Assembly (NCBI GenBank): GCA_963829055.1
Contig: CAWHHI010000009.1
Location: 32,001-96,000 of the forward strand
Reading direction: 5' to 3'
Length of the DNA stretch: 64,000 nt
From: an uncultured Gemmatimonadaceae bacterium
GTDB lineage: Bacteria; Gemmatimonadota; Gemmatimonadetes; Gemmatimonadales; Gemmatimonadaceae
A program made the position numbers and the translations under genes. Positions 1 to 63,711 of the stretch are shown here, one piece after another. Position 1 is the stretch's first letter, and each line of letters begins with the position of its first letter. Below the pieces are notes generated by a model, which was given only the letters and a program-made list of their open reading frames with translations, did no database searches and was not told the DNA's origin.

Positions 1-502
1 TGAGCGCGGCCGCAATGTCGATGAAGTCCCCATACCGTTCCGTGCGCGCCCCCAGAACCGAGTTGGCGAAGACGATGGCGTTCGACTCCGCCCAGGCAAT
101 CTGCTCGCCTAACGACGGACGGTTGGGGAGCTGATACGGAGCACAGGTCCACGTGGGGCGGCACCCTAACGCCGAGTAGAGCCGCATCAGCTCGCGGCCG
201 GCCGTGCGCCGCTTCGGATCGCCGCGGTTGAGCTCCGGATGCAGCAGGTCGACGGCCCCAACGTTGAGCGTCGTCTCGACCCGTACGGATCCGCCACCAG
301 CAACCAGACGCTCGGCGAAGTCGATGCTGACCGGACCGTGATACAGGCATCCGTCCACGTGCGCGCTGGCGATGGGAACCAGGCGCTCGGCTCCCATCAA
401 CTCTGCCATGCGTACGAGAAGACGAGCGGCGAGTTGGGTGGCGACACCTCCGTCGCCCCCCAGCATCGCCCGCTCGTCGCTCGTTAGGTCGATCGTCGGC
501 AC
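1..502 (-). CDS. Aconitase X (AcnX/DUF521) catalytic subunit, N-terminal part; continues off the left edge
   Basis: Manual minus-strand translation gives SAHVDGCLYHG...TTLNVG...CRPTWTCAPYQ...GEQIAWAESNAIVFANSVLGARTERYGDFIDIAAAL, typical of AcnX; GTG start at 502. Confidence 0.85.
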   Translation of the reverse strand, partial: MPTIDLTSDERAMLGGDGGVATQLAARLLVRMAELMGAERLVPIASAHVDGCLYHGPVSIDFAERLVAGGGSVRVETTLNVGAVDLLHPELNRGDPKRRTAGRELMRLYSALGCRPTWTCAPYQLPNRPSLGEQIAWAESNAIVFANSVLGARTERYGDFIDIAAAL

Positions 503-547
503 GCGAGGCCCCGAAGAGACGGGTGCGTGTCGAGCGACGCGCCCCGC

Positions 548-1951
548 TTACGGATTACGGTCCGTGCACCCTGACCAATTCGCGTTGTTCCGCTCGGCAA
601 ACGACGGCGTGATGTTCTGATCGGTGCCGTAGGTACCGCCCTTGAAGTACGCCCCCGTGGGCCACACCGACGTCGCCGGACGCGTGTACTGCCGTACGAG
701 CCGGCGCAGGTCGCCCACGCGGTGGGTGGTCAGGTACAACCAGAACGCCCGCTCGCGAAAGAGCAGATCGATGCGCGCGGCATCGGTGCCCGGATCGACG
801 AGTGGGGGCAGTGGATCCGCGCCCGACGTGGCAATGGCCCACGCCGTTCGTGCACCGGCGTCGGCACGCGCCGTGTTGAGCGCCGTCATCATGCCCGCGG
901 CGTTACCGGCTTTCAACGCGGCCTCGGCTTCGATGAGGCGCGCCTCGACACCAGTGGCCAAACGCGTCGGGGCGGAACCGTTCGGATACCCCAGAATGGT
1001 GTTGACGCGCGTTGAACCATCCTGTCCCAACCGAATCGTGGGGCTGATCGGCACGCGCGGATCGTTCGCGGAGATGAAGTTGAGACCGTTGCCGCCCTCG
1101 CGCTCGGACGGACCGAAGTTCGCGGTGCCCACCATCCAGTCGTAGATCGTGTTCACGAGCGTCGTGGCGGAGTATTCGGCATTCACCACGAAGCTGGTCG
1201 CGACAGCCGCCGAGCCCGCGCCGTCACCGCCGGCGCCGACAGCGGCCGCCGCGTCGGCGAACCGCGCCAGGTCGACCAGCGCGCGCGCCTTCGCGATGCG
1301 TGCAAGGTTTCGGAGTGGAAGGTCGGCGGCTGTCGTGGACAGCGTGGCGAGCGCGCTATCGGCCTGCGCCACCGCACGCGTGAACATCTCCGCGTTCGAC
1401 ACGATCGTGTATTCCGGAGCCGTGTCGTCCGCGTTGGACAGCGGAACCCCATTGCAGAACAGCTCCCCGGCGATGCTCAGCGAGAGACTGGACATCGCGT
1501 GCAGCTGGCCAATCTGGGTCGACCGCGTTGCGCCTGCGGGCGAGTACTGCGCCAGCGACTTGCGCGCTCGAATGAGTTGCGTATAGGCCTGGCCGAAGTT
1601 GTTCCACGCCACGTTCGGAAAGGTGTTCTCGTTGAAGGCGCGTTGGTCGATGTGATCCGCGCCAGGGCGCGCATTGATCAACTCGTCCGAGATGAGCCCA
1701 CCATACAGGTTGGCGCCGACGTTGATGGTGCCGCTGTAGAAGTTGTGGAAGTTGCCGATCGCCGCTGCCCTCAACGCCTGAGCACCGGCGGGATTGGCCG
1801 CATCACCCGGCGAAATCTGGTCCGGCGTCTCCACTTCCAGCAGCGTTTCCCTGCTGCACGCGGCAACCACGGCCAGCGCGAGTGCGGTGGCCGAACGGCG
1901 CAGCATCCCCTGGGTGCGTCCCACATATGTATCGATCATGATCGTCCTCAT
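548..1951 (-). CDS. RagB/SusD-family outer-membrane lipoprotein
   Basis: Lipobox-like VVAAC, EARLIEAEA and LFRERAFWLYLTTHRVGDLRR motifs; start overlaps the stop of the SusC-like gene (TGATG). Confidence 0.85.
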   Translation of the reverse strand: MRTIMIDTYVGRTQGMLRRSATALALAVVAACSRETLLEVETPDQISPGDAANPAGAQALRAAAIGNFHNFYSGTINVGANLYGGLISDELINARPGADHIDQRAFNENTFPNVAWNNFGQAYTQLIRARKSLAQYSPAGATRSTQIGQLHAMSSLSLSIAGELFCNGVPLSNADDTAPEYTIVSNAEMFTRAVAQADSALATLSTTAADLPLRNLARIAKARALVDLARFADAAAAVGAGGDGAGSAAVATSFVVNAEYSATTLVNTIYDWMVGTANFGPSEREGGNGLNFISANDPRVPISPTIRLGQDGSTRVNTILGYPNGSAPTRLATGVEARLIEAEAALKAGNAAGMMTALNTARADAGARTAWAIATSGADPLPPLVDPGTDAARIDLLFRERAFWLYLTTHRVGDLRRLVRQYTRPATSVWPTGAYFKGGTYGTDQNITPSFAERNNANWSGCTDRNP

Positions 1952-4900
1952 CACAGGCCGAAGTTGAAACGGAGAAGCCAGTAGCGAACTGGTGGCGCCG
2001 CGAAAAAGTCGTTGTTCCCGCCACCGGTGTTGGCCACCGATGAGTTGATCTCCGGATCGAGGCCGGGATACTTGGTCCAGAGGACTCCGATGTTGCGCCC
2101 ACTCAGCGTGAGGCTCGCGTTGTGCCCGTGGGCGAACGACACGTACTTGTCGGGAACGCCCACCGTGAAGCTCAACTCGCGGAAGCGAATGAAGTCGTTC
2201 TCCACGAAGTAGCCCCATACCGAGTTGCCTAACAACGCGCTCGTCGTCGTGACCGCCGCCGCCTGGTCGGCCAGCGGGGCCTTGGGGTCGCTCACCGCTC
2301 GGCAGTTGCCCGAGACGCAGCGCTGGTTCTCGAAGCCCCATTGGTTGTAGAAGCCGCCGCGATAGTCGAACAGGGTGGTGATCTGCAGCTTGTCGCCGAA
2401 GAAGCCGAAGGTGTTCGTCAGGCCCCCCTCACGAGTGGGAAGGGTCGAGCCCTTGAAGGCGGGGTCCTTACCGACGACGACCTCACTTTCGGTGAGGAGG
2501 CCGTCGCCGTTCGCGTCGTTGAAGCTCGTGATCGGTCGCGCCCAGAGTCCGAACAACGGATACCCGACGACGTTGCGTGCACCCTGCGTTACCGCGAGCT
2601 GCGCCGTGCCTGCATCGACCAGTTCATTCTTGAGGAATGAGCCGTTCACATGCAGCGACCACTTGACCGGATCTGTGTCGATCACCTTCCCCTGCACCGC
2701 CAGCTCGACACCACGGTTGCGAACCTTGGCGAGGTTCTGCCACTGCGATGGCGCACCGGTCTGACTACTTCCGATCGACGGCGGAAGCGGGTTCAGAAAG
2801 AGCGCGTCGCGGCTTTCCTTGTTGAAGAACGTGGCTTCGAGCGTCACACGGTTGTTCCAGAAGCCGACGTCGGCACCGAGCTCGATCTCGGCCGTGACTT
2901 CGGGCTTGAGGTCCGCATTGCCCTGTGATTGCAGGCGAAGCGCAGCGGTTTCCGCGCCGCCTACGGGGACCGAGAAGGCACTCAGATACTGCAACGATGC
3001 CGTCGTGACCGTCGGGAATTGCCCCGCCTGACCGTACGCGCCGCGAAGTCGCAGATCGCTCATCCAGCCGAACTTCGGGAACCAGTCTTCCTCCAGGAGG
3101 CTCCACGAGAGCGCGGCGCGAGGATACACGGCATTGCCAGCGTTCGAGCCGAAGGCGCTGTTCTGGTCGGTGCGCACGCCCAGCGTCAGGAAACGCTTCT
3201 CGCTCCACCCGAGGACTTCCTCGAGGAAGGCGCCATAGGTGGCGTTCTCGTTGGTCGTCTCGGATGAGAGCTGCAACTGAGCGCCGTTAGGCGTCTGCGC
3301 GCCCGGCGGGAGCGAATAGCCGCGGGCGTCTGTCTGGTACTGCGTGTCCTTGAACCACTGCAGACCGACTGATGTCCGCGTCGACAACGCCGGCAACGCC
3401 TGCCACGTGGCGGTCGCGCCAGCGTCCGCCGAGTAGCGCGAGAAGGTGTTGCGCGTGGCGTCACGCCCGCCGGTCTGCCCCGGTGGGCCCCAGCCCGTGA
3501 CCGTCCCTTCGCCAAAACGCGCGAACCGGTAGCCGTAGCCCGTGTTCTGATCCAGACCGACGGTGGCGCGGCCGGTCAGCCACGATTTGGGCTGCCAGTT
3601 GAACGAACTGCTCCCCGTCAGCCGCTGGTCGCGCAGCTTCTGCGTGACGGAGAAGATATCGCCAATGTACTGAGCCGACGTGCCGTTGGTTGGCGTGCGG
3701 AAGCCAGGGGCGAAATACGTCTGGAACCACAGGCCGGCAAAGAAACCGCCCTCGAATGGTGTGTAGAGCGTTCGGTCCGAGTACCCGGACGAGAAGCTGA
3801 GCTGGGCGTTGGAACCGATCGGCACGCCGAAGTTGGCGCGCAGGCTCGTCTGCCCCAGGCTATTGGGCTCGACCTGCTCGTCGCGAGGGCTCGCACCGCG
3901 CGCTGTCGTTAGGCGGGCGATCTCCGCATCCGGCATGCGATACGGCCCGGTTTCGTCCTCGTGCTCGGCGGACAGGAAGAACGTGAACGCGGAGTTGCCG
4001 CCCGATGCCTGCGCACCCAGGAGATAGCGCGGTTGCGTCTTGAACGGCGTCGTCTCCGAGTTCATGAGCGGGTTGAACGTCGTGACCGAGTCAGCCACGC
4101 ACCGCTTGAGGGATTGGTCCGACAGACGGCAGGTGACTGGAGCGGGCTGCGCGACGCCGCCGACCAGATTGCGCCCCCAGGAGCGATAGTTGTCGGCGAA
4201 GGTGGCGGGCTGGCTCACCTGTCCGGCTTCGCCGTAGAGGTTCCAGCGCGTCTTGCCGGATGCGCCGCGCTTCGTCTTGATGACGAGCACGCCGTTGGCC
4301 GCGGCGGTGCCATACAGCGCGGCCGCCGATGGCCCCTTGATGATATCGATGGACTCGATGTCGTCCGCATTGAAGGCGCCGAAACGGTTAACTCGTGTGG
4401 TGGTGACGGACCCGCCAATGGCGCCAGGCGCCGCCGAGTTGTCGACGCGTACCCCATCCACGATGATGAGCGGCTCGTTGCTGAGCGAGAGCGAGCTCGT
4501 GCCGCGGATACGAATGGACGGCGACGCTCCCGTTAGGCCCGATCCCTGAATGATCTGCACGCCGGGCGTCCGGGCTTGCAGGACCTCGGTGATGTTCGTG
4601 ACCGGCGCGCGACCAGCGAGCGAGTCGACCGCCACCGAGGCGATCACGTTTCCGATTTCCTTTCGCGATTGATCGCCGGTGGCCGTGGTGACGACGGCCT
4701 CGAGCTGTGTGGCGACCTTGGCGAGCGAGAAGTCCGCGGTCACCTCTCCGGTCGACGGAACATCGACGCGGATCGAATCCGGTGCGTAGCCGATGCGGAT
4801 CGCACGCACGACTACCTGGCCCGCCGGTACCGAGTGGATGACATAGTTGCCGTTGTTGCCCGTCAGTTCGCCTAACCGACCGGAGCCGACGACGATGACG

Positions 4901-8554: not shown

Positions 8555-8636
8555 TGTCCATTGGCGTTAGGCACGTGTACGACGACATCGAGCGGGTGAC
8601 GCAGGCGTAGACGATGCGGTTGATCCCGGTCGAGTG

Positions 8637-9053
8637 TCAGTCGCCGGTCGGAATGATGCTCGCGGTCTCGACCATCAGAATCACGGCGCGCTCGGGTGCC
8701 CGAGTGCGATGGCGAACGCCTCTGGGCACCACGAACCCTTCTCGCGGCTCGAGCGTGACCACTCGGCCCGGCGTGATGCCGTCGGCCTGCGGCTCCAGAT
8801 CAATGAGGAAGCGGCCGTCGAGGACGAAGAAGAACTCGTCGTCCTCGGTGTGCTCGTGCCAGTGATACTCCCCGTGCATGACGCCGAGCCTAACGACTGA
8901 TTCGTTGACGCGGGCCAGCGTCTGATTGTACCACGCATCGCGAACCGCGGCGACGAGCGGATCGAGCGCCACCTTCTCCAGGGGCCCGAAGAGGACGTTC
9001 AGATGCGTGGCGTACGGAAATTCGGCAGGCGAAGGCGTATCTGGCGTGGACAT
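8637..9053 (-). CDS. Cupin-domain protein
   Basis: GEYHWHEHTEDDEFFFVLDG and FVVPRGVRHRTRA motifs; ATG overlaps the upstream TAA. Confidence 0.85.
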   Translation of the reverse strand: MSTPDTPSPAEFPYATHLNVLFGPLEKVALDPLVAAVRDAWYNQTLARVNESVVRLGVMHGEYHWHEHTEDDEFFFVLDGRFLIDLEPQADGITPGRVVTLEPREGFVVPRGVRHRTRAPERAVILMVETASIIPTGD

Positions 9054-9870
9054 TATCGAATCTTCCTCCCGGGTCTGTCGCGGCCGAACTGGTGGAGGAC
9101 CAGCCCCGTCACCGCGCCGCTCGCGTCGCGCACGAAGCTGACCTGCGCGTCCGCCTCGGTGACGAAGAAGTCGCTGCGTGCTCTCCGGCCAGACGCGCAG
9201 CGCGTCGCCGCCGACGTTCGATTTGATGTAGAGTGCTGCGTCGCGCAGCGTCACCTCGAGCTGGAGGCCGGGCGCGATCTCGTAGAGGCCCACGTACGGC
9301 GACAACGCGGTCACGGGGAGATCGATGGCCGTCCGCTTCTTCGGCGGGAGCGCTGACGGTGGCACCATGCCTAACAACCGCATGTAGACCGCGAGCTGGC
9401 TGTAGTGCTCCGCCAGATCGGTCTCGAATCCGATCAGTGTGCTGGCGAGTGCCGCCGAGTTGAGTTGCGGGACCGCCTCCATCGCTGCGTCGCAGAAGCG
9501 GAGTGAAGCCCTGAGTCGCGCGACGAGCGTGTCCTTCGGCCACCGCGCCTTGACCGTGTCGGCCAGCGAGTCCTTGGCGGTCCGCGGACGCTCGAGGCTC
9601 CCGAGGCGCTCGCACAGACCGTAGTTCGCGTTCTCGAGATGCTGCGCGATGTACCCAATGGACTGCTGGGTGGGCATCGGGCGGTAGTCGTAGCGCGCCG
9701 CGGGAATGGAGTCGAAGGCGGCGACGAGTCGGGCGCCGAAGGCGTCGGCGATCCGAACGAAGCTGGCCATCACGCCGTCCGGCGCCGGGCGAGTGGCTGG
9801 TGTCTGCGCGGGGAGCGCCGGTGGGAAGGCGACAGACGAGTGCGATGATGAGCGCGGTGCGACGACGCAT
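9053..9870 (-). CDS. Secreted DinB-family protein with a C-terminal DUF3471-like domain (frameshifted)
   Basis: YDYRPMPTQQSIGYIAQHL and EHYSQLAVYMRLLGMVPPS DinB motifs; signal peptide MRRRTALIIALV in a shifted frame. Confidence 0.7.
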
Positions 9871-10065: not shown

Positions 10066-10392
10066 ATGCTGGACCGGCTCGCCCGGTTGGTCGGCGTCTC
10101 GCCCACGGTCGCCGCGCTCATGCTCGTACTCCTCGTCGTGCAGCTGGCGACGCAGGCGTACGCGCTGGTAGACCTCGCGCGACGCGACGCGGTGCGAGGC
10201 GGCAACAAGTGGGTGTGGGCGCTCGTCATAGCGTTAGGCAATCTCCCGGGCGCGATCGCCTACCTCGCCGCGGGCCGACCGATGATGGAGGCGGACGTCG
10301 CGGGCGCTGGCTCTGGCGCGAATGCATCGGCGGGCGTCGATGCGGCCCGGCACGCCGTGGATGCGCTGTACGGTCCGCGCGACCGACGATGA
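10066..10392 (+). CDS. PLDc_N (phospholipase D nuclease N-terminal) small membrane protein
   Basis: ALVDLARR...NKWVWALVIALGNLPGAIAYL pattern; GGAGG RBS. Confidence 0.8.
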   Translation: MLDRLARLVGVSPTVAALMLVLLVVQLATQAYALVDLARRDAVRGGNKWVWALVIALGNLPGAIAYLAAGRPMMEADVAGAGSGANASAGVDAARHAVDALYGPRDRR

Positions 10393-11427: not shown

Positions 11428-12190
11428 CCGGGCTTCGGCGCCTTCCTGCGAAAGGAGCTCATCGAGATTCGCCGGACGTGGCGGCTCTGGGTGATCCCCG
11501 GGATGCTGGTGTTCTTCGGCGTGACGAGCCCGATCATCGCGGCGCTCACGCCGGCACTGGTGCGGTCGATGGCCGCGTCGCAGCCGGGAGTCGTGATCCG
11601 GCTGCCGCCACCGACCGCGCTCGACGCCTACGCGCAGTTCATCAAGAACCTCAACCAGTTCGTGCTCATCGCGGTGGTGATCACCGGCGCGGGGGTCGTC
11701 TCGGGCGAGCGCGTCCTCGGGAACGGCGATCCTCGCGCTGACGAAGCCGCTCTCGCGCGGCGCGTTCGTGGTGGCGAAGATCCTGTCGCAGCTCGCGCTC
11801 CTCGTGGCGGCCACCGCGTTAGGCACGACAGCCTGCCTGGTGATGACGGCGGTGGTGTTCGGCGGCGCCGACGCCACTCGGCTCGTGACCGCGGTGGCGC
11901 TGTGGCTCGTCTACGCCACGCTGCTCGTCGTGGTGATGACGCTCTTCTCGGCGGCGTTTCGCTCGCGCGGCGCGGCCGCGGGTGCGGGGCTCGGTTTCTT
12001 CTTCCTCACGCTCCTGTTCTCGAGCTGGGGACCGGCGGCGCGGTACAGCTTCCTCGGGCTGCTGCCGGCCATGCGCAACGCGCTGGTCGGACAGCCGATG
12101 TCGTTAGGCTGGCCGGTCGTGACGGCGGTAGCGGCGATCGCGGTCGGAGCGGTGGCGGCGGTGCGGATCTTCGAGCGGCAAGAACTATAA
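11424..12190 (+). CDS. ABC-2 type transporter permease (frameshifted)
   Basis: FLRKELIEIRRT start, multiple hydrophobic helices, C-terminal FERQEL. Confidence 0.8.
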
Positions 12191-13864: not shown

Positions 13865-14479
13865 TCAGCGTCGATGCCCGCCTAACGCCTGACGGTCAGC
13901 TGCGTCAGCCGCCGGCGCGGACGAGTCGTCGGGTGGCAGCCGCACACTGGCGCCCGCACCACGTTGAGATGCCGACCGCCTGTGCACCCACGCCCACCCG
14001 ACCAGCGTGGCGGCCAGGAATGGATACCCGTAGAATGGCAGCGGCTCGGAGAGGGGCGTCAGGCCCGCGCCGCCAAAGATCCTCGCCGCCGTGACGGCGA
14101 ACAATATCGCCGCGATCGCCCCGGTCACCCTGACAAGTCCTGGCATGATTGGGGACGCGCTGACGAGGGCTAACGCCGCCGACCAGAGCCCCGCTCCAGC
14201 CGCGAACGACGGGGCGCTCGCCGCGAGGTCCATGGCGGAGCCGGAGACGATCAACGTCTCGCCCGCAAGGAATACCAGGAACCCAGCCGCAAGTTGCGCA
14301 TCTCCGCGGCGCACGTGATGGACGCAGAGCAACGCGCTGCCGACCACGAGCGCGACGCCGTCAGCTCCCCAGGCGAGACCGCGGAGCGCGGCGTTAGGCG
14401 CGAATGAGCCAACCATGCCCAGCAGGGCCCCGATCACGAGCCCTGCGGCCGCAACATTGTGTAGTCGTTCGTCGCTCAT
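13865..14479 (-). CDS. Hypothetical membrane protein; C-terminus reads through a degenerate attC-like site
   Basis: Several hydrophobic segments; the last ~35 codons coincide with the attC-like sequence. Confidence 0.6.
   Translation of the reverse strand: MSDERLHNVAAAGLVIGALLGMVGSFAPNAALRGLAWGADGVALVVGSALLCVHHVRRGDAQLAAGFLVFLAGETLIVSGSAMDLAASAPSFAAGAGLWSAALALVSASPIMPGLVRVTGAIAAILFAVTAARIFGGAGLTPLSEPLPFYGYPFLAATLVGWAWVHRRSASQRGAGASVRLPPDDSSAPAADAADRQALGGHRR
13880..13955 (-). other. Degenerate attC-like site (R' and L boxes intact, R'' lost)
   Basis: Minus strand GTGCGGCTGC...GCAGCTGACCGTCAGGCGTTAGGC; the 3' end resembles the complete attC at 61485; the M23 gene starts about 20 nt downstream. 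Confidence 0.5.
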
Positions 14480-18166: not shown

Positions 18167-18440
18167 CTCTATCTCCGGCGTCATGAGGTTTGGTAGTGGC
18201 CGCGAGGTGTCGCGGCGGATCGGCACAACAAGATATACCGTGTTGGGCGCCGGGGTGCCCGCCGAGACGCTGGCATCTCGGCTCCGTCCCCAGCGGAACC
18301 GAGCGCTGCCTAACGCTCTGGCCAAGCCGCGAGCGAAGTGAGCGTGGACAGGCAAGCGCCGTCGCCCGTCCCGCCACGGGGATCAATTCCGCGCGGCGGC
18401 CCTCGCTCGGCGATTCACCCGTGAGCACATTCCAGCCGCC

Positions 18441-21400: not shown

Positions 21401-21618
21401 TCCGGGTCAACGACCGCCTAACGGGGCTCCGGTCGCAGGTGGACGATGGCTACGCGCGACCAACGGATGCACAGCGGGCAGTGTTCCGGGAGTTGGCGGC
21501 GGAGGTGGATCGGTCGCTCACGACGCTGTCGAGCGTGTACGCTCAGCAGCTCACGCGCGTGAACGAGTCGCTGCGTCTGGCGAAACTCCCGGAGGTCGGG
21601 ATGACGTTCGTGCGGTGA
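18441..21618 (+). CDS. Secreted VPS10/sortilin-like BNR (Asp-box) repeat glycosyl hydrolase-like protein (one frameshift near 20410)
   Basis: WRNIGPNRGGRS start, repeated SxDGGxTW Asp-boxes, HADHHDLWIDP, GGGES, ATHGRSFWILDD. Confidence 0.88.
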
Positions 21619-23615: not shown

Positions 23616-23663
23616 GCCTAACGCCAAGCTGAGCTGACGGTCAGCTTCAACGATTTGTTAGAC
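23616..23663 (-). other. Solitary, very short (48 bp) attC-like site
   Basis: Minus strand GTCTAAC-AAATCG-TTGAAGCTGAC-C-GTCAGCTCAG-CTTGGC-GTTAGGC with R''/L''/L'/R' boxes and an extra base in L''. Confidence 0.72.
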
Positions 23664-42218: not shown

Positions 42219-42238
42219 CGTTTCGATGCTCTCTTCCG

Positions 42239-47073: not shown

Positions 47074-47278
47074 CGACGCGCCAGGCACACGCGGCTGTGC
47101 CGCTCGCCTATTCGTTAGGCGGGGAAGTGGGGCGCTCTGAACCGTCGTCTCATCCGTAGTGACTGTCCGCAGGGGAGCCAAGAGGGTGTCTGGAGGCTGT
47201 AGCAATGCGAATCACGCTGGACGCCCTGCTTGTGCTCCTCGCGAAACGAAACCGCGCCCAGCGGAGCTCGGGACTGGC

Positions 47279-48903: not shown

Positions 48904-51834
48904 ACACATTCCCGGACCAGCGTCACTGGATGCACTGCACGACGCGACGTGCCCTGCGCGATCTGCTGACGACACGACACGCCCGTCGCCGCGACGATCG
49001 CATCGGCGCGGCGCCTTCACCGCCGGAAAGAGCCGCATGCCGCCGATCTGCGAGCGACAGGTCGTAGTGCTCACGCTCGAAGCCGAACGAGCCCGCCATG
49101 CCGCAGCAGCCCGCGTCCAGCACATCCACCGTCGCGCCTGGAATGCGACGCAGCAGCGCAATGCTTCCCGCCGTCGCATTCGATGCCTTCTGGTGGCAGT
49201 GACCGTGAAAGAGGATCGGTCGTCCCGCCGACGGCCGCGTTAGGGTCCAGCGTCAAGACCGCCGTCGTCGATCGCCTCGCGCGAGCAGGTCGTCGACCAT
49301 GCGTGCCTGACGCGCAATCGCCGCGCGCGCTCGAATCGCCCGCGTGCGAGAGTCCGGCAGCTCGTCCTTGAGCGTGAACACGCATGACGGCTCGCAGCCG
49401 ACGATCGGAACGTCCCTCGCAGCGCCGCCGGCGCGAGCTGCGCGATCAGGTCGCGTGGCGCTGACGCGCGCTTCGTCGAGCAGTCCCTTCGAGATCAACG
49501 CGCGACCGCAGCAGACGTCGCCCGCGAGCTGCACATCCCAGCCCGCCATCTCGAGCAACTCGATCGCCGCGCGACCGATCTCCGGCTCCGTGTAGCTCGT
49601 GAACGAATCGGCGAGGAAGACCACCGGCCCGCGACGCACACCGTTCGTCGGGCGCCAGCGGTGCTCGCCGCGCGAACCAGCGCTGCAGCGTCTCTCGCTC
49701 GAACTGCGGCAGCGCACGGCGGCGATCGATGCCGCCGAAACGCTCGACCAGCGCACGCACCGGCCGCGACCCGGCGACCCAGTTCGACAGTGGCGCCAGC
49801 GCCGACGCCGACGCGATTGAGCGTTCGCACGTGACCGAACACGCGCGCGCGGAGCGGCACGCCGTGCTGCTGCGTGGTAGTGCGACAGGAACTCCGACTT
49901 GAGCGCCGCCATGTCCACCGACAGCGGACACTCCGTCTTGCACGCCTTGCACTCGAGGCAGAGGTCGAGCATCGTCGTGGAGGCCCTCGTCGCCTAACGC
50001 CGCATGCGGATCCGGCGACGACAGCGCGTGCACGAGCGCGTTCGCGCGACCGCGCGTCGAGTGCTGCTCGTCGCGCGTGGCCATGAACGACGGGCACATC
50101 GTGCGTGCCCGCCAGCTCCGACTTCCGGCACGCGCCGATTCGCGCGCAGCGGTTCGCGGCGCCGCGCATGCCGCCATCGGCCGTCGAACGAGAAACTGCG
50201 TCGCGACCGGCAGCGCCCTCGGCAGCGCCGGCTCGCGCAGATGCTCCGTCATGCGCGGCGCGTTCACCTTCTTGCCCGGGTTGAATCGGCCGTGCGGGTC
50301 GAAGATCTGCTTGAGCGAGCGCATCGCACCATACAGCTCGTCGCCGAAGATCCTGCGCGTTGAACTCACTGCGCACGAGACCGTCGCCGTGCTCGCTGCT
50401 GTTCGTTGCCGCCGAACTCCGTGACGAGCGCGCACACCTCGTCGGCGACTGCGCGCAGCGTCGTCGACCGCACCGGGCTTCGTCAGATCCATGAACGGCC
50501 GGATGTGCAGACACCCGGCCGACGCATGACCGTAGAAGCCCGCCCTCGAGCCCATGTCGCTCGAGCAGCTCGGCGAAGCGATGCGTGTATTCGCCGAGTC
50601 GCGTCGGATCGACCGCGGTGTCCTCGACGAACGCAACGGATCGCTCGCCACGCTCACCGGCCGCACTGAGCAGGCCGAGTCCCGCCTTCCGCAGCTCGCG
50701 AAAGCGCGTCAGGTCACCGCTGGTTTCGCGCGCGCAGCACGGCGTAGCCATGACCGTTCGCGCGCCACAGCGCCTCGAGTCGCTCCGCGGACGCCCGCGC
50801 TTCCGCCGGCGTGTCGCCGTAGAACTCGAGCCACAGCAGCGCGCCCGGATCACCGTCGAGCACGGACACGAGCTTGCCGTGCGCGGCCGAGCGACGCGCC
50901 AGATCGAGAATGAAGCGGTCCACCAGCTCGATGCACGGCGGCGTCGCACTCGCGCGCGTCGTCGGCGGCGGCGATCGCCTGCGGCGACCGTCTCGAAGTG
51001 GCCGGCGACGCCCACGACCGCCTTCGGCTGCGGAACGAGCCTAACGCTGGCCTCGACCACGACGGCCAGCGTGCCCTCTGAACCGACGACGAGGTTCGCG
51101 AGATTGAACGGGCCGCGCTCGGACAGCATGCGCTCGAGGCGATAGCCGCCGGACTTTCGCCAGAACGGCGGGAAGTCGCGACGGATCGCCGTCTCATGCT
51201 GCGCGACGAGACGCGGCACGTCGCGATGCAGACGCGCATCGAGCGAGTCGCCCTGCGCCGCGACGCGCGACCTCGCGCCGCGTCGAGCGGACCGAATCGC
51301 GCTCGGCTACCGTCCGACAGCACGACATCGAGCGACTCGACGTGATCGATCGTCATGCCGTAACGCGCCGAGCGCGCGCCGCACGAGTTGTTGCCGATCA
51401 TGCCGCCGAGCGTGGCGCGGTTCGACGTGGACGTATCGGGCGCGAACATGCAAGCGGTGCGCGCCGGCCGCCTTGTTCAGATCATCCTGGATGAGCCCCG
51501 GCTGCACGCGCGCGGTCATGGCGTCGGCGTCGAGGCTGATCGAGACGATGCATGTGCCGCGACATGTCGAGCACGACGGCGCGCCCGACCGTCTGGCCGG
51601 CGAGACTCGTCCCGGCACCGCGCGGCAGCACCGGCACGTCGAACTTGCCGGCGACCTCGACTGCCGCCGCGACGTCGTCCGCATCGCGCGGGAACGCGAC
51701 GCCTAACGGCTCGATGGCGTACAGGCTCGCATCGGTCGAGTACGAGATGGCGCGTGTATCGAATCGAACCGGATCTCGCCGCGCGAGCGCGGCGCGCAGC
51801 GCGCGCTTCGAGCTCTGCGTCAGCGACTCCGCAT
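48900..51834 (-). CDS. FAD-linked oxidase fused to an Fe-S/CCG domain (GlcD/GlcF-like; heavily frameshifted)
   Basis: PRGAGTSLAGQ, ATLGGMIGNNSCG, GSEGTL, EHGDG, CLECKACKTECP, CCG and GCCGMAGSFG motifs. Confidence 0.85.
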
Positions 51835-52656: not shown

Positions 52657-54864
52657 TCAGTCGTGGGGACGCGCGAGCGCGCGGTCGAAGAAAGCCGCCG
52701 TCGCCGAATCGACGCGCGCCCAGTTCGAGCGGCGCATCATGTGGTGCGTGTCATCCACGATCACCATTTCCTCGAACGGCACGCGCGCCGCCTCGAGTCG
52801 CCGCACGAGATCGACCGTTCCAGCGAAGCGCACGTTGCGGTCGTCGTCGCCGTGGATCAGCAGCACGGGTGAGCGCCACGTCGACACCGAGGCGACCGGC
52901 GACGACGTCCACGCCGTCTTCCGCGCGCGCTCGAGGTCCGGCGCCTCCTCGAAGCGTCCGCTCCCTGCCGAGGCGGCGAACGCCCGGCCTGCTCCGGAGT
53001 TGGGCGTCGTGAAGTCGTGCACGCCGTGGACGTCCACGCCGGCGGCAAACACGTCGGAGTTGCGGCCGAGCGCGAGCGCGACGAGGAAGCCGCCGTACGA
53101 GCCGCCGAAGATGCCGACGCGGCGCGCGTCGACGTCCGGCCGCGCCTGCAGCCACCGCGCTCCCGCGAGCACATCCTGGTACTCGGCCGCGCCCTGCGCG
53201 CCGGCGTTAGGCGGGTGGTGAAACTCGTTCCCGTAGCCGATGCCCAGCCGATAGTTCACCGAGAGCACGACGTATCCCTTGGCGGCGAGGTACTGGTTGG
53301 ACGCGTACGAGTTCGCGTAGTAGTCCATGTAGTGCCAGCCGAGCAGCATCTGGCGCTGCGGGCCGCCGTGGACGAAGACGAGCGCGGGACGCTTGCCGGT
53401 CACGTCGGTGCGGGCGAAGAGCTGCGCGTGCACCTCGGTCCCGTCCGGCGCCTTGTAGACGACCTGCCTCGGCGTCACGAGCTTGCGCGGCCGGGAAATC
53501 GGCGGGGATGCGGTCCTCACCGAGGAGCCGCGTCGAGCCACCTTCCGACTGCATGACCGCGGGCAGCGCTGGACGCTGCGCGGTGGCACTGAAAAACGCG
53601 ACCGCGCTTCCGTCGCCCGTCACCACCGGCGACGACTCGATCCCCGTTCCAGGCGTGAGCACCTCGGGCGCGGCGCGATCGACGGGCACTCGCGTTAGGT
53701 GGCGACGGTCGATGTCCTCGCGCGCGGGGCCGGTGTTCGCGGCGAACACGAGAAAGCGGCCGTCGGCGCTGAGCCTGACGTTCTCCGCCATGTACCGGCC
53801 TGGCGTCAGGAGCAGTGGCGTCCCGCCCGTGTCCGGCATCGAGTAGAGGTGTGGCCATCCATCGATGGTGGAGAGGAACGTGATGCGGCCGCCGGCCGCC
53901 CACTGCAGGTTCGCACCGCCGTCCGAGGTCGGCAGCGAGCCGCGCACCGTCGCCGGCGCCTGCCACAGCCGCCGTCCTTCGCCGGTGGCCACGTCGGCGG
54001 TCCAGACACCCCAGCGCACTCGACGCTGCGCGAGCAAGCGAGTCGGGTGCACCCCCAGTGCCGGGCGTGCGGACGAACGCGATGCGTCGTCCGTCCGGAG
54101 ACCAGCGCGGTGTCCTGTCACGCGAGGTCGACGGCGCGAGCCAGCGGATCGGCGTCGAGTCGTTCGTGTAGATCCCGATGAATGCGTGGTCGCCGCGGTT
54201 GGAGACGAACGCCAGGCTCGACCCGTTAGGCGCCCACTGCGGCTCTTCGGCGTCACCGTTCGCGGCGAAGAGGCGGCGGGCTGGCGCCGAGCCATCCACG
54301 GGCACCGTCCAGATCGCGTGGTCGCGGATGAATGCCACGGCGTCGCCCGCGGGGGACACGGTCGGCTCGTCGCCGTCCCCCAGGAGCTTCGGCTGGGCCG
54401 CCAGCGAATGGCACTGACCAGACCTGAATCTTCGGCGCGACCGGTAGTGAAAGCGGGTTGGGAGACGCGCCGCTCCAATTCCCTCCGTGATCGCCGCCGC
54501 GCACGTACACGACGTATCGGCCGTCGCGCGTCAGCTGGACGCTCGTGAGCTCCTGGCCGTCATCGCGGTCGTACGCCGTGATCTGTCGCGGGCGAAAATC
54601 CGGACCCTCCGCGACCCACAGATTGCGTCGCCCGGCTTCGTCGAGGGCCCACGCGATGCGGCTGCCGGTGGGTGCCGCGGTGAGCTCGGAGGGGAACGGG
54701 TAACCCGCGATCTGCGCGAGCGTGAACGGCGCTGCTGCCGGGCCCGACGGCGGCGCTGACTGGGCGGCGAGGGGAACGGCCACCAGCAGCGCCACGACCG
54801 GGACGCAGGAGCCGAGGTGGAACGAAGTACGGTCGTCAGCGCGACGGCGAAACGGACGCAACAT
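52657..54864 (-). CDS. S9-family peptidase with PD40/TolB-like repeats (frameshifted)
   Basis: VHGGP, GGSYGG, HGDDD and DDTH motifs; PRWSPDG repeats; signal peptide. Confidence 0.85.
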
Positions 54865-55106
54865 TGGGAGGTGGCGCGGCTGGGGACGCCGGTGATCGCC
54901 CGCGTGGCGAACCGGCGTGCGAACGTATCGCGCGAACCCGGACCACGCTACCACTGTGCTACACCATGTGCCACGCGATGCCGGGCGCTGGCGGTCAGGG
55001 CGGTGCGCCTAACGCGAATAAAGCCGCCGACCCGTACAGCGCCGGCCAGAAGGGGCCTCTGGCATCGGCCGTGCGCCTGATGCGGCGCGATCCGCTTCCC
55101 AAAGGC

Positions 55107-55214: not shown

Positions 55215-56048
55215 ATGTCGCTTCCAGACAAGGCACTGTGGATCATAGAGCGCAACTCTACCCAACCCCTCACGCTCGACGGCATCGCCGCGGCGTGCGG
55301 TGTCTCACGGTCTCATCTGGCCCATGCCTTCGGCACCGCGACGGGCCTGTCAGTCATGCAATACGTGCGCGCGCGTCGCCTGTCGGCAACAGCGCAGGCA
55401 CTCGCGGCCGGCGCGCGTAACATCCTCTCGCTCGCACTGGAGGCGGGCTACGGTTCGCACGAAGCCTTTACACGCGCGTTCCGCGAGCGCTTCCAGCAAA
55501 CCCCCGAGAGCGTGCGCGAGCGGCGCAGTGTCGCCGGACTCGAGCTCGTTGGCCCACTCGAGCTGCGGCCTCACGCCAATGTCCGCCTCGATCCGCCTCG
55601 CATCGTCGACGAACACGTCATACGCGTTGTCGGCCTCGCCGAGCGTTGCTCGTTCGACACGACCATCACGATTCCCGCGCAGTGGCAGCGGTTCATGGAG
55701 CTCTACCCTGCCATTCCCCATAAGCGCGACCGCATTCCCGTCGGCGTGAACTACGGCGCGGACGACGACGGGCAGTTCCAGTACATGTGCGGCGCCGATG
55801 TGCATCGCTTCGGGGAGCGCATGCGAGGGCTGCTGCACCTCGAGATCCCGCCTCGACAGTATGCGGTGTTCGAGCACTGCGGACACGTGTCCACGATCTA
55901 CGAGACCTACCGCAGCATCTGGAGCGACGCGATGCCTAACACTGGCCGCTCTGTGGCTGATGCTCCGGTCATCGAGCGGCACAATCCGACGTTCGACCCA
56001 CGCACGGGAGAGGGCGGGCTGACGTTGTGGATACCCCTGACCTCGTGA
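55215..56048 (+). CDS. AraC-family regulator with a GyrI-like effector domain
   Basis: HTH with LALEAGYGSHEAFTRAF; C-terminal IPAQWQRF and YAVFEH motifs. Confidence 0.9.
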   Translation: MSLPDKALWIIERNSTQPLTLDGIAAACGVSRSHLAHAFGTATGLSVMQYVRARRLSATAQALAAGARNILSLALEAGYGSHEAFTRAFRERFQQTPESVRERRSVAGLELVGPLELRPHANVRLDPPRIVDEHVIRVVGLAERCSFDTTITIPAQWQRFMELYPAIPHKRDRIPVGVNYGADDDGQFQYMCGADVHRFGERMRGLLHLEIPPRQYAVFEHCGHVSTIYETYRSIWSDAMPNTGRSVADAPVIERHNPTFDPRTGEGGLTLWIPLTS

Positions 56049-57364: not shown

Positions 57365-58364
57365 ATGAGGATCGAGGCATACGCGATCCACGAGCCGGGC
57401 GGCGCAGCAGAGCCGTTCGCCTATGAGACGTCACTCGGCAGCGCAGACGTTCTCGTGAGGATCACGCATCGAAGCCTGGCGAGGGGCGACATCCAGTTCA
57501 TCGACAATGCCTGGGGTGATGCTCGGTTCCCACTGGTCCCGGGCCACGAAATCATTGGCATCGTCGAAGCGGCAGGCTCCGACGTCGCCGACCTGCATCC
57601 GGGTGATCGTGTCGGTATCGGGTACCAGCAGCAGGCGTGTTTCGAATGTGCCTTCTGCAGGCGGGGCAGAGAGCAACTGTGCGTTAGGCAGAAAGTCATC
57701 GCCGTCGACTGCTACGGCGGCCTGGCGGAACACATCGTCGTCGATGGTCGGTTCGCATTCCGGCTCCCGCCGCAGATTCGACTCGGCCACATCGACGCCG
57801 TTGCTCTCGTCAGGCCTGACCGTATACGCGGGGATCCTTCGCGCAGGATTGCCTGCCGGCTCCCGAGCGGCGGTGCTCGGCGCGGGAGGACTCGGTCATC
57901 TGGCAATCCAGTTCCTTCACCGGATGGGGCACAGCGTGACCGCGTTCTCGCACTCGCCTAACAAGCGGGGGCTGATCGAGCGCCTGGGAGGGACGTTCGC
58001 GGACAGCTCCGACACGGGGCACCTGACGGAGCACAACGGCGCATTCGACTTCATCCTCTCGACGCTGAATGTCCCGTTCGACCTCGACGCATTCGTCAGA
58101 ATGCTGACGCCAGAGGGGCAGCTCTGCCTGGTCGCGTCGCCGCTGGAGCCGTTATCGCTGAGCGGCGGTCTGTTGAACAACTCTCGGCGATCGATCTATG
58201 GCAACTACATCGGGAGTCGGTCCGAGACCGTGGAGATGCTCGACTTCGCGGCGACGCATGGCATCCGGGCCGTCGTCGATGTGATGCCGTTCGCTCGAGT
58301 GAACGACGCCATCGAGCGGATCCGTCGAAGGGATGTCGCGACGAGTGTCGTGCTGGAGAGTTAG
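57365..58364 (+). CDS. Zinc-type NAD(P)-dependent alcohol dehydrogenase (CAD/Ahr-like; frameshift near 57775)
   Basis: PGHEIIG, CFECAFC...C structural zinc lobe, GAGGLGHLA. Confidence 0.88.
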
Positions 58365-58382: not shown

Positions 58383-58410
58383 GCCTAACGCCCCAGTCGA
58401 GCTGCGGGGC
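58383..58410 (-). other. 3' half of an attC site
   Basis: Minus strand CCCCGCAGCTCGACTGGGGCGTTAGGC, similar to the 3' end of the attC at 61485. Confidence 0.55.
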
Positions 58411-60166: not shown

Positions 60167-60266
60167 CTCTAACGCCTTAGCTCAGCTCAAGGGAGTCACG
60201 TAAGAGCGCCGAGCGGAGCTCGGCGCAACTCCTGAAATCCCTTGTCAGCTTCAGCGTTCGTTAGGC
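60167..60266 (-). other. Integron attC site
   Basis: Minus strand GCCTAAC-GAACG-CTGAAGCT...AGCTGAG-CTAAGGC-GTTAGAG; the upstream gene's TAA stop lies inside R''. Confidence 0.88.
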
Positions 60267-61484: not shown

Positions 61485-61582
61485 GTCTAACGCCTGAAGT
61501 TGAGCTGCGAGGGCACCCATAGGATGCGGCGACGCAGCCGCCGCCACCAAATCGCCCTCGACAGCTCCAACGGACGTTAGGC
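61485..61582 (-). other. Integron attC site
   Basis: Minus strand GCCTAAC-GTCCG-TTGGAGCT-GTCGAGGGC...GCCCTCGC-AGCTCAA-CTTCAGGC-GTTAGAC with two unpaired bases on the L'' arm. Confidence 0.9.
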
Positions 61583-63127: not shown

Positions 63128-63249
63128 GCATAACGTCAACCCGCGAGCGCCCGACCGGATGGAGCCAGCGATGGTGAGCTTAGGGTACCGGAATACTGGG
63201 CACGATACCGAATGCTTCTAGCGCTCGTCACCTTCTATGGACGTTAGGC
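63128..63249 (-). other. Degenerate attC site
   Basis: Minus strand GCCTAACGTC...CGAGCGC...GCGCTCG...GACGTTATGC; the stop codon of 63244-63573 lies in R''. Confidence 0.65.
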
Positions 63250-63573
63250 TGGAGGCGGCCCCGACTCGCCGGCCTGAGCGTGCGCCTCAACGAGCGCGAT
63301 GGCGAGCCCGACGAACTCCTCCGGAGGCGGGATGTACGAGCTGGAAGGCGCGGCCCATGCTTGGAGCTCGCGCATAACGGTTTCCACGTCGGCGTTTCCG
63401 TCGAGCACCGCAACCAGCCACTGGGCGGCCTCTCCGAGCGGCTCACCCAAGCCGGGTACGAACTTCGCTCGGGCAAGGACATCTTCGAGCGGCTGTTCAC
63501 GTTTGCGTATGAGAAGGAACAGGGGATCGTCCGGCGGGCGCTCCCAGAACGCGTTTACCATGTCGTCGGACAA
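63244..63573 (-). CDS. Hypothetical protein (gene cassette)
   Basis: Starts about 25 nt after GTTAGGC (63605-63599) with a GGGAG RBS and ends in the GCCTAAC of the next attC. Confidence 0.68.
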   Translation of the reverse strand: MSDDMVNAFWERPPDDPLFLLIRKREQPLEDVLARAKFVPGLGEPLGEAAQWLVAVLDGNADVETVMRELQAWAAPSSSYIPPPEEFVGLAIALVEAHAQAGESGPPPA

Positions 63574-63598
63574 CGTAGGCTCCCTAATGTGTACGTCA

Positions 63599-63711
63599 GC
63601 CTAACGCCAAATGGGTTGTCACGTTATCTCGCGAAGCCGACCCAAATGCTGTGGGGCTTCGCAAGATATGCCGTTGGTGTCCGGAAGAGCAAACGCTAAG
63701 CCGCTTGGCGG
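63599..63711 (-). other. Degenerate attC site (R' intact, R'' decayed)
   Basis: GGCGTTAGGC R'; internal stem TATCTCGCGAAGCC/GGCTTCGCAAGATA. Confidence 0.45.

Follow-up and report, generated by a model that had tools for sequence, protein, structure and literature searches.

A hyper-abundant, asymmetric octamer in Gemmatimonadaceae genomes that matches the integron crossover core and resembles a DNA uptake signal

Introduction

The DNA uptake sequence (DUS) of the Neisseriaceae, the uptake signal sequence (USS) of the Pasteurellaceae and the HIP1 octamer GCGATCGC of cyanobacteria are the closest described counterparts of the element considered here, the octamer CGTTAGGC (complement GCCTAACG), which is written throughout a window of 64,000 nucleotides from a Gemmatimonadaceae genome. 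The USS consists of a 9-nt core with AT-rich flanks. Other short words that are over-represented in chromosomes, among them Chi and KOPS/SRS, are read by DNA-processing machines, and GTTRRRY is the consensus of the crossover core in the attC and attI sites of integrons. The DUS is described as abundant, conserved, biased towards the core genome and lacking in acquired genes (PMC2397512), with a strict core, tolerant outer positions and a stop codon in some of its reading frames (PMC3630211). The USS is reported to alter peptide frequencies, the frames that it occupies correlating with preferred codons (PMC2817400). HIP1 is given as 15-300-fold over-represented (PMC5861425), has been tied to methyltransferases (PMC4390886, PMC13756078) and is now proposed to act as an uptake recognition sequence (PMC5861425, PMC4390886, PMC13756078).

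The window (G000:C9:32001-96000) belongs to a metagenome-assembled genome (MAG), referred to here as the source genome or G000, of 7,784,024 bases in 20 contigs with 67% G+C, a completeness of 86% and a stated contamination of 3.95%. A preliminary description of the window had proposed that the heptamer GTTAGGC is a DNA-level, frame-independent and strand-neutral signal of the DUS, USS or HIP1 kind. This proposal holds, in that the enrichment survives a null model preserving every protein and codon count, and polarity is absent. The word is a signal read on double-stranded DNA, and not on RNA or protein, and point substitution both keeps and creates it, in spacers as well as in each frame that allows it, without preference for either strand. 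What kind of machine, then, reads it? The answer favoured here, with a probability of roughly 0.4, is that the octamer is an uptake-signal-like tag of self-DNA, which would be spread by biased uptake and homologous recombination.

Abundance and coding context of the octamer

The over-representation noticed in the preliminary description is borne out by counting. The window holds 58 exact copies of the heptamer, 31 on the forward and 27 on the reverse strand, at coordinates that agree exactly with those first given and within the estimate of about 55-60; the GTTAGG[A/G/T] variants, put at about 12, number exactly 12. In 100 dinucleotide-preserving shuffles of the window the heptamer occurred 2.71 +/- 1.61 times, the largest count being 7, so that none of the 100 reached 58. 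The heptamer is, however, not the unit. Across the source genome the base 5' of it is C in 89% of 5,630 copies (in the window C in 45 of the 58, T in 10 and G in 3), every other flanking position reaches at most 46% for any base, and alignment of all 5,630 over 12 bases on either side reveals only the three-base rhythm of coding DNA. Because this one base is conserved and nothing else in the flanks is, the unit is taken to be the octamer.

The octamer occurs 5,004 times in the source genome, a mean density of about one copy per 1.5 kb, against 131 copies expected from an order-1 and 257 from an order-3 Markov model (19-38x). Its z-score is the highest of all 8-mers under both models, and in raw abundance it ranks 32nd among the 65,147 8-mers seen, despite its TTA; 24% of all TTA trinucleotides in the genome lie within it. 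Other 8-mers that contain TTAG stand at 0.21 of their order-1 expectation, and measured against this class of its own the word is enriched about 180-fold (38.1/0.21). A maximal-order Markov ranking missed the octamer, to which it is blind because the sub-words of the octamer are themselves dominated by it; lower-order models and a codon shuffle were used. The source genome is also rich in further words such as TCGGAATGA, TGTCATCC(C), AGTCGAGGAA and TCCGAGCGGA, the last of them palindrome-like, each present 300-900 times; they suggest at least one family of dispersed repeats that has no relation to the octamer.

Genes were called with a crude codon-likelihood caller, giving 6,366 genes over 73% of an assembly that holds frameshift-split genes, and 20 synonymous-codon shuffles were made in which the proteins and the codon counts of each gene were kept, the word's own rare codons included. 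Coding sequence contains 3,174 copies against about 150 after shuffling (strand maxima 69 and 125), a 21-fold excess over the protein-preserving null that the preliminary description had suggested. All four of the stop-free frames named in the preliminary description are used, with 1,276 copies as xCG-TTA-GGC (Leu-Gly), 878 as xxG-CCT-AAC-G (Pro-Asn), 590 as xGC-CTA-ACG (Leu-Thr) and 417 as xxC-GTT-AGG-C (Val-Arg); a further 1,485 copies lie outside called genes and 356 at gene edges. In this way the octamer imposes the rare codons TTA, CTA, AGG and CCT. For instance, TTA encodes 11.5% of the leucines that precede glycine and 0.55% of the remaining leucines, and the xCG-TTA-GGC frame alone holds 1,279 of the 2,784 TTA codons (46%). 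Among the eligible contexts, [STPA]-Leu-Gly is encoded with the word in 22% of cases, Pro-Asn-[VADEG] in 58%, [SRCG]-Leu-Thr in 20% and Val-Arg-[LPHQR] in 11%. The Pro-Asn dipeptide occurs at 1.39x its expected frequency, and the octamer has therefore shaped the proteome as well. The remaining two frames occur at the ends of genes, where the word supplies 199 of 795 TAA and 171 of 1,638 TAG stops. A special tie to termination was considered and rejected, as this share of stops equals the share of all TAA and TAG trinucleotides that lie within the word.

Distribution in the family and absence from foreign DNA

A tRNA-synthetase gene of the window has its nearest named relatives in MAGs of the Gemmatimonadaceae or Gemmatimonadales, and all seven genomes of the source genus are enriched, congeners holding 2,501-5,112 copies in 5.7-7.8 Mb. 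For the family as a whole 201 genomes were sampled, of which four flagged as unpublished were set aside; of the 197 left, a genome was called enriched where the octamer exceeded twice the count of its reversed control word, depleted where it fell below half of that count, and intermediate otherwise. On this scale 64 genomes are enriched, 119 depleted and 14 intermediate. The earlier suggestion of a motif specific to one lineage thus gives way to a patchier picture, with enriched genomes in 28 of the 75 family genera and depletion in most others. Only genus g54 holds both states, with 66 copies in G120 against 3,479-4,141 in G062, G162 and G194. The highest densities, about 1.2-1.3 per kb, are reached in genus g14 (G022, 6,360 copies in 5.1 Mb) and in G201 of genus g67 (7,821 in 6.1 Mb).

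Sequence fetched from six further enriched genera, of 62-74% G+C, shows the word on both strands and without any flank consensus, and it is the top word in the four of these that were tested as well as in the congener G004. In G053 it is spread over all four contigs, with 0.5-0.86 copies per kb on those of 5.31 Mb, 1.11 Mb, 1.04 Mb and 21 kb. The depleted, near-closed G064 has no copy of the octamer and no other hyper-abundant 8-mer in the 200 kb sampled, and the idea of dialects of the word was rejected on this ground; the sequence sampled from G120 for this comparison was skewed to its integron contigs. In a sample of 201 genomes from the phylum, only genus g109 of a neighbouring family is modestly enriched outside the Gemmatimonadaceae (e.g. 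1,061 copies against 271 of the control), and in the remaining families the octamer lies below the control word, with or without four unpublished genomes. DNA nearly identical to window positions 1-10000, with at least half of the sampled 31-mers, is present in 17 public sequencing runs from soil, rhizosphere and sediment that stem from many studies. Among the matches listed in literature searches, the strings of the octamer and its complement hit only primers or unrelated sequences, and the papers searched for over-represented motifs, uptake sequences and integron sites of Gemmatimonads, among which subscription journals are thinly covered, do not describe the word; the motif appears not to have been described previously in this group.

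The source assembly itself contains DNA that lacks the word. Three stretches at contig ends (C6:5440-55037, C11:1-46789 and C6:591808-623330) amount to 128 kb without a single copy, where about 84 would be expected. They encode housekeeping and not mobile genes, and the first carries a second FtsK, a chorismate synthase (aroC) and a DAHP synthase that are 47-54% identical to the other copies in the genome. Most simply, the three are foreign DNA in the bin, and C2:33099-43593 is probably a further word-free, foreign stretch; a 64-aa FtsK fragment on contig C2 is 98% identical to the foreign FtsK of C6:5440-55037. Among native genes, the density of the octamer rises steadily with G+C at third codon positions (GC3), from 0.36 per kb in the lowest decile to 0.82 per kb in the highest. 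Such a trend is expected if genes of low GC3 are recent arrivals; it is also expected if recombination drives both GC3 and the word, a link that is presumed here.

These observations bear on whether the octamer could be an artefact of sequencing or assembly, could stem from the core of a mobile repeat, or could simply follow from amino-acid or codon usage. The source assembly does carry frameshifts of the indel type, which would suit an artefact. The word is nevertheless enriched in seven of seven genomes of the genus and 64 of 197 in the family, in assemblies with very different contig numbers, which answers the concern, raised at the outset, that it might be missing from related genomes. It is absent from the foreign stretches of the very same assembly, which serve as an internal negative control, it has no conserved flanks, and it exceeds the codon-shuffled null in four frames while also occupying spacers. 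An origin of this kind is hardly credible.

Conservation of orthologous sites

If the word is maintained, its sites should outlast those of ordinary 8-mers, and this is what is found. About 770 kb from the congeners G001, G004 and G005 was aligned with the source genome by blastn, and 167 of 327 high-scoring segment pairs were kept, the other 160 being dropped for overlap with a better pair on the query, for identity below 72% or for fewer than 400 columns; those kept span 352 kb at 79-80% nucleotide identity. Gap-free 8-mers are identical in 21%, 21% and 23% of cases in G001, G004 and G005, respectively. By comparison, copies of the octamer in the source genome are perfect in these relatives at 45/77, 32/73 and 26/44 sites, and copies in the relatives are perfect in the source genome at 45/69, 32/49 and 26/42. 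Pooled, 103 of 194 sites are kept, 2-3x the figure for ordinary 8-mers, with binomial p values against background of 1e-12, 2e-5 and 2e-7 in the same order, in tests that share source-genome sites and are hence not independent. The conservation at orthologous sites that the preliminary description had named as a check is thus present.

A gap faces the octamer at only 11 sites, from which it follows that copies arise by substitution and not by insertion. Insertion footprints of cassette traffic were rejected as a source of copies, the sites aligning without gaps. The commonest alternates at orthologous sites are CGTTAGGT (22), CGCTCGGC (9, carrying the preferred leucine codon CTC), CGTTCGGC (8) and CGTCAGGC (6).

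Strand use, spacing and chromosomal signals

The near-equal use of the two strands in the window extends to the whole source genome, with 2,547 copies on one strand and 2,457 on the other. When windows are divided by the sign of their GC skew the counts are 976/919 and 1,385/1,382, showing no bias in either class, and when 10-kb bins are oriented by smoothed skew the G-rich strand holds 1,033 copies against 993 (51%), compared with 57-73% for the most skewed 8-mers used as controls. With respect to genes, 1,696 copies lie on the same strand and 1,478 on the opposite one. Two hints of polarity elsewhere came to nothing: in genera g53 and g78 the fetched sequence has the word on both strands, and a 22+/6- imbalance on G010:C1 is absent from the other contigs of that genome.

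Over-representation, a length of eight letters and a density similar to that of Chi would suit a strand-polarised signal on the chromosome, of the kind to which Chi and KOPS belong. The absence of replichore skew, a check suggested in the preliminary description, refutes strong polarity, and both strands are in use in the six other genera too. RecC (PF04257) was found neither in the source genome nor in four other sampled genomes of the genus, and across the family it occurs in 24 of 201 genomes, 5 of the 64 enriched and 18 of the 119 depleted. This explanation is very improbable.

Neighbouring copies avoid one another at short range. Distances below 200 bp number 213 where 611 are expected, and the density of pairs relative to expectation is 0.21 below 100 bp, 0.45 at 100-200 bp and 0.76 at 200-300 bp, reaching about 1 beyond 500 bp, with same-strand and opposite-strand pairs behaving alike. 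In bins of 1-5 kb the ratio of variance to mean is 0.56-0.99, such that copies are spread more evenly than by chance. Periodograms of seven contigs over 3-100 kb gave no periodicity (p 0.06-0.89 against permuted bins).

Even spacing with an exclusion zone of 200-300 bp would fit the footprint or wrapped complex of an abundant cytoplasmic protein whose binding sites are under selection, either a nucleoid-organising factor or a nuclease, helicase or defence system that reads the word as a non-polar mark of self. Such a binder would agree with the conservation of sites above background, with the coverage of every replicon in G053 and with the bimodal division into rich and depleted genera, as for one factor that is present or absent; HIP1, for its part, has been argued to act in nucleoid structure (PMC5861425). 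Against this, no candidate protein turned up, long-range periodicity is absent from the seven contigs, the several-fold spread of densities within genera fits a balance of drive and mutation better than a fixed structural need, and RecC is missing from the five sampled genomes of the genus. A cytoplasmic binder is regarded as unlikely, though as the most probable of the alternatives to uptake.

Variant spectrum and DNA modification

The spectrum of near-matches says something about the reader. Among the 24 one-letter variants of the octamer, only those at the two end positions are enriched, bar one: CGTTAGGT occurs 827 times in the source genome, TGTTAGGC 435 times and CGTTAGGG 428 times, the other end variants showing a smaller excess, and TGTTAGGT, which has T at both ends, has merely 14 copies. 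For substitutions at inner positions 2, 6 and 7 the counts are 9-58 per variant, with ratios of observed to expected (O/E) of 0.2-0.4 that match the background of TTAG words (0.21). There are 435 copies of TGTTAGGC and 13 of CATTAGGC, an asymmetry that argues against simple decay by CpG deamination and suggests that the reader is strict about the GTTAGG core but graded in its demands at the ends, where C is preferred to T. The single inner variant that is itself enriched, CGTTATGC, is a minor second word with 583 copies (O/E 4.4) and occurs in G061 12 times in 80 kb against 1.4 expected.

Could near-matches be turned into the octamer by biased repair, or by a drive linked to DNA modification, of the HIP1 or very-short-patch-repair kind? 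Hyper-abundance of an octamer and its conservation at orthologous sites do resemble HIP1, and inner one-off variants are not above background, as such a process would have it. The variants with T for C at the ends are, however, strongly enriched and not depleted, the word is not a palindrome, and independent repair site by site would not yield exclusion at short range. Nor do the enzymes fit. Vsr is found in none of the seven genomes of the genus, and the two of 21 relatives that are positive are not enriched. PF01555, PF02384 and PF00145 have no match in the source genome, at its 86% completeness, and the two DNA methyltransferases detectable there do not track enrichment: the D12 class occurs in 18 of 64 enriched and 59 of 119 depleted genomes, and a fusion of an Eco57I/MmeI-like methyltransferase with an SNF2 helicase in 58 of 64 and 110 of 119. 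The methyltransferase-coupled process entertained in the preliminary description accordingly finds no support, and a drive by repair or modification is quite unlikely. The fusion gene has features of its own. It encodes an N6-adenine methyltransferase with an SNF2/ResIII helicase of about 1,070 aa, lies frameshift-split at C8:73551-78317 and is present as a single copy of 50-73% identity in 184 of 201 family genomes, an unusual degree of conservation for a gene that resembles restriction-modification systems.

Relationship to integrons

The identity with the integron crossover core that was first noticed for the heptamer extends to the octamer, which forms the 3' end of attC hairpins in the relatives G015 and G013. 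Relatives without genome-wide enrichment have few copies, and these form clusters on one strand at intervals of 400-1,300 bp. On G015:C95, for instance, 26 of 27 copies within 30 kb (1-30000) share a strand, and similar arrays occur on G015:C80 (7 copies, with intI fragments at the end of the contig), G015:C43 (6) and G013:C3 (8). In the arrays each copy is the 3' end (R') of a conserved element, about 85 nt long, whose fold is an imperfect hairpin with CTAAC at its 5' and GTTAG at its 3' end; these elements are canonical attC sites. The arrays themselves are large assemblages of chromosomal integron cassettes, and their attC sites are highly uniform. The source genome has an intI of its own at C20:208041-208958, which scores 265.7 bits against a curated cut-off of 265, and 3' of it are seven same-strand copies at the boundaries of open reading frames (ORFs; array region C20:200700-208960), at least two of which have CTAACG about 85 nt upstream. 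These copies are tentatively regarded as attC sites. That the attC core and the octamer coincide by chance is unlikely.

It might accordingly be supposed that the copies are half-sites of IntI or of a paralogue, whether as secondary sites, decoys or footprints of cassettes. The letter-for-letter match with the R' end of the attC sites of relatives speaks for this, as do the copies that adjoin intI in the source genome, the cassette arrays in which many of the few copies of depleted genomes sit, and the preference for Y at the last position, as in GTTRRRY. Integron integrases are widespread in the family sample, with 121 of 201 genomes and 60 of 77 genera positive, and they do not follow the word: at E <= 1e-60, 43 of the 64 enriched genomes and 68 of the 119 depleted ones have IntI, as does just one of five genomes of g14, which is among the densest genera. 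Site differences between species are substitutions, with only the 11 gapped sites mentioned above, and the IntI-like recombinase of the preliminary description loses its footing on both counts. In addition, the partners of attC hairpins that lie 50-150 nt away in the arrays of G015 are, for the genome-wide copies of the source genome, in deficit (below 200 bp) and not in excess, and other GTTRRRY words, such as CGTTAGAC and CGTTAAGC, are at background there. Enrichment is not limited to attC remnants, and the bulk of the 5,004 copies lie in conserved genes without a hairpin partner. An integron-linked origin is therefore judged improbable.

A variant of the uptake reading would accommodate the match directly, if a receptor for uptake or for entry into recombination were specific for the attC core, such that transformation and cassette capture were coupled and genome-wide drive was a by-product. 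Were this true, gene cassettes shed by relatives would all be tagged for uptake from the outset. The possibility is attractive, and a long shot.

Uptake and recombination as the favoured explanation

The preference for an uptake-signal-like tag stems from a feature-by-feature agreement of the pattern with the DUS and USS. In this view, part of the machinery for DNA uptake would favour fragments that carry the octamer, as is the case for the DUS of Neisseria and the USS of the Pasteurellaceae, and homologous recombination of these fragments would then replace alleles that lack it. The word would thereby spread and persist through molecular drive, possibly aided by selection for the uptake of DNA from kin, and the presence or activity of the reader would differ between enriched and depleted genera. 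Candidates for the machinery are the type IV pilus, ComEA, ComEC and DprA, all of which are encoded in the source genome: its full set comprises pilM-N-O-Q (followed by aroK and aroC), pilB/T/C, two PilA, minor pilins, a ComEA-like helix-hairpin-helix (HhH) protein located with pilB, pilT and pilC, as well as ComEC and DprA.

A 119-aa basic minor pilin whose gene adjoins pilA (C12:401408-401764) is a weak lead as the reader; a pilin-like protein of 340 aa is encoded next to it. At E <= 1e-6, homologues of the minor pilin are present in 55 of the 64 enriched genomes and in 68 of the 133 others (Fisher p 1.6e-6, kinship ignored). A search of PDB sequences with this pilin gave only chance matches to antibodies, and its single-sequence AlphaFold model has a mean predicted local distance difference test (pLDDT) score of 58, too low for a comparison of folds. 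A second pilin-like gene, at C16:947619, looks frameshifted in the assembly.

Several observations weigh against uptake. The pilus and Com genes are near-universal in the family and do not discriminate. All of the 21 relatives have ComEC, and PilM is shared by 58 of the 64 enriched genomes and 109 of the 119 depleted ones; PilM thereby joins IntI, D12, the Eco57I-SNF2 fusion and RecC among the families tested for co-distribution, none of which tracks the word. The lead from the minor pilin is tempered in that the query was taken from a genome rich in the word and that homologues also exist in many depleted genera. The ComP_DUS family (PF16732) has no match in the source genome, in a search that was equally silent in all 14 control genomes. 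Close inverted pairs of the kind that forms terminators in Neisseria are not in excess, and the exclusion zone of about 200-300 bp falls below the kilobase scale expected if one copy per fragment suffices. The burden of rare codons departs from what is described for the USS (PMC2817400), the exact identity with the attC core is left unaccounted for, and the literature search returned no report that links Gemmatimonads with uptake sequences or transformation. What probability remains is left to mechanisms other than the uptake tag and the five alternatives discussed above.

Significance

Were the octamer an uptake or self-recognition signal, the phenomenon known from the DUS and USS would extend beyond the Neisseriaceae and Pasteurellaceae (HIP1 being the proposed cyanobacterial case) into a widespread and little-studied phylum of soil. 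What appears to be new is a hyper-abundant word that is asymmetric, lacks flanks, equals the integron crossover core, belongs to another phylum and shows an unusually clean contrast of presence and absence. With 64 enriched and 119 depleted genomes, few in between and a mixed genus in g54, the reader should be findable by comparative genomics, and assays may be feasible if the near-closed enriched assemblies derive from cultured strains. Given the exact match with the attC core, a connection of transformation with the capture of cassettes becomes open to test. In practice the word can serve as a marker for binning and for spotting foreign DNA, having exposed the roughly 128 kb of probable contaminant in the source genome, and it shows how far a drive at the level of DNA can bend codon usage and proteome, to the extent of 46% of TTA codons and 58% of Pro-Asn contexts.

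Copies in the window and neighbouring features

The copies in the window are collected in Table 1. Positions 32106-45002 form a cluster for polysaccharide biosynthesis and export, with a sugar transferase, several glycosyltransferases, a Wzy-like polymerase and an export protein of 873 aa with five SLBB domains. An element of about 96 bases is present in two inverted copies (12225-12320 and 12586-12681) and also on several contigs of G001 and G002 at 77-91% identity; it is possibly a small dispersed repeat or a miniature inverted-repeat transposable element (MITE). The window has no match to any Rfam family. The class I tRNA synthetase at 28962-31547 is broken into adjacent ORFs in different frames, as are pilB (C12:492-494 kb) and both methyltransferases (one at C8:134570-135701). 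Such splitting of long genes is typical of indel errors in assembly, and gene-level statements on the source genome therefore need care.

Table 1. The 58 heptamer copies in the window. Coordinates are those of the heptamer within the octamer; frames follow the crude gene caller and are named as in the text.
Word	Position	Strand	Frame or setting	Gene or remark
CGTTAGGC	107..113	-	Leu-Gly	
TGTTAGGC variant	2227..2233	-	Leu-Gly	
CGTTAGGC	3286..3292	+	Pro-Asn	TonB-dependent receptor
CGTTAGGC	3908..3914	+	Leu-Thr	TonB-dependent receptor
CGTTAGGC	4532..4538	+	Leu-Thr	TonB-dependent receptor
GGTTAGGC variant	4870..4876	-	Leu-Gly	
CGTTAGGC	8566..8572	+	no called gene	
CGTTAGGC	8888..8894	-	Val-Arg	
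TGTTAGGC variant	9369..9375	-	Leu-Gly	
CGTTAGGC	10233..10239	+	Leu-Gly	orthologous site in G005 is CCTTCGGC
CGTTAGGC	11818..11824	+	Leu-Gly	kept in 4/4 aligned relatives
CGTTAGGC	12103..12109	+	Leu-Gly	kept in 2/4 aligned relatives
CGTTAGGC	13880..13886	-	Leu-Gly	
CGTTAGGC	14393..14399	+	Pro-Asn	
CGTTAGGC	15602..15608	+	no called gene	
CGTTAGGC	16189..16195	-	Val-Arg	
CGTTAGGC	18308..18314	-	no called gene	
CGTTAGGC	19022..19028	-	Pro-Asn	BNR/sortilin-repeat
TGTTAGGC variant	19286..19292	+	Leu-Gly	
CGTTAGGC	20315..20321	-	Pro-Asn	
CGTTAGGC	20895..20901	+	Leu-Gly	
CGTTAGGC	21416..21422	-	Leu-Thr	
CGTTAGGC	23616..23622	-	no called gene	
CGTTAGGC	24591..24597	+	Leu-Gly	FtsX/MacB permease
TGTTAGGC variant	25499..25505	+	Leu-Gly	amidase
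TGTTAGGC variant	26501..26507	+	Leu-Gly	amidase
CGTTAGGC	27748..27754	+	Leu-Thr	
CGTTAGGC	28130..28136	-	Val-Arg	
GGTTAGGC variant	28398..28404	+	gene edge	
CGTTAGGC	28961..28967	+	gene edge	
TGTTAGGC variant	29547..29553	-	Leu-Gly	class I tRNA synthetase
CGTTAGGC	30427..30433	+	no called gene	within 563-aa synthetase ORF 29856-31547
CGTTAGGC	30711..30717	+	no called gene	within 563-aa synthetase ORF 29856-31547
TGTTAGGC variant	34691..34697	+	Leu-Gly	
GGTTAGGC variant	35489..35495	+	Leu-Gly	
CGTTAGGC	35790..35796	-	gene edge	
CGTTAGGC	37116..37122	+	Pro-Asn	
CGTTAGGC	37855..37861	-	Leu-Gly	glycosyltransferase
CGTTAGGC	38544..38550	-	no called gene	
CGTTAGGC	39814..39820	-	Val-Arg	Wzy/O-antigen ligase-like
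CGTTAGGC	44004..44010	+	Pro-Asn	polysaccharide export (SLBB)
CGTTAGGC	44806..44812	+	Leu-Thr	polysaccharide export
CGTTAGGC	47114..47120	+	no called gene	
TGTTAGGC variant	47570..47576	-	Leu-Gly	
CGTTAGGC	49992..49998	-	no called gene	
CGTTAGGC	51039..51045	-	no called gene	
CGTTAGGC	51701..51707	-	no called gene	
CGTTAGGC	53206..53212	+	Pro-Asn	S9 peptidase
CGTTAGGC	54225..54231	+	no called gene	
CGTTAGGC	55007..55013	-	Pro-Asn	AraC/GyrI-like regulator
TGTTAGGC variant	55934..55940	-	Pro-Asn	
CGTTAGGC	57683..57689	+	no called gene	
TGTTAGGC variant	57956..57962	-	Pro-Asn	
CGTTAGGC	58383..58389	-	no called gene	
CGTTAGGC	60260..60266	+	no called gene	
CGTTAGGC	61576..61582	+	no called gene	
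CGTTAGGC	63243..63249	+	no called gene	
CGTTAGGC	63599..63605	-	Leu-Thr	

Comparison with known systems

How, then, does the octamer stand beside the systems already described? With the DUS, which is read by the minor pilin ComP and is taken here as its papers present it, it shares thousands of copies on both strands in genes and spacers, conservation at orthologous sites, a lack in recently acquired DNA, a distribution limited to certain clades, an inner core that is strict next to outer positions that tolerate change, and a stop in certain frames (PMC2397512, PMC3630211). It differs in having 8 nt without extension where the DUS has 10-12 nt, in belonging to another phylum, in forming no inverted terminator pairs and in that its uptake bias is a proposal. 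The DUS also has dialects, whereas the enriched genera of the Gemmatimonadaceae share one word and the 200 kb sampled from the depleted G064 contain no substitute for it. With the USS, again as its literature portrays it, the likeness lies in the use of several coding frames, the raised frequency of the encoded peptides and the absence from genes without homologues in relatives (PMC2817400). Unlike the USS, the octamer has no flanks, and it forces the rarest codons where the USS goes with preferred ones.

HIP1, in the accounts available, is likewise an octamer that is over-represented, conserved between genomes and missing in exceptional lineages (PMC5861425, PMC4390886, PMC13756078). HIP1 is, however, palindromic, serves as the target of the methyltransferases DmtA and DmtC and recurs with a period of 10-90 kb, whereas CGTTAGGC is asymmetric and without periodicity, and no methyltransferase was found that tracks it. 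Chi and KOPS/SRS are co-oriented with replication and the octamer is not; RecC was found in none of the sampled genomes of the genus (AddAB and AdnAB were not searched for). Finally, the octamer has the very letters of the attC/attI core of integrons and ends attC hairpins in relatives, and probably in the source genome as well, yet unlike attC it lacks a hairpin partner in the bulk of its 5,004 copies, which are embedded in conserved genes on either strand and occur independently of IntI.

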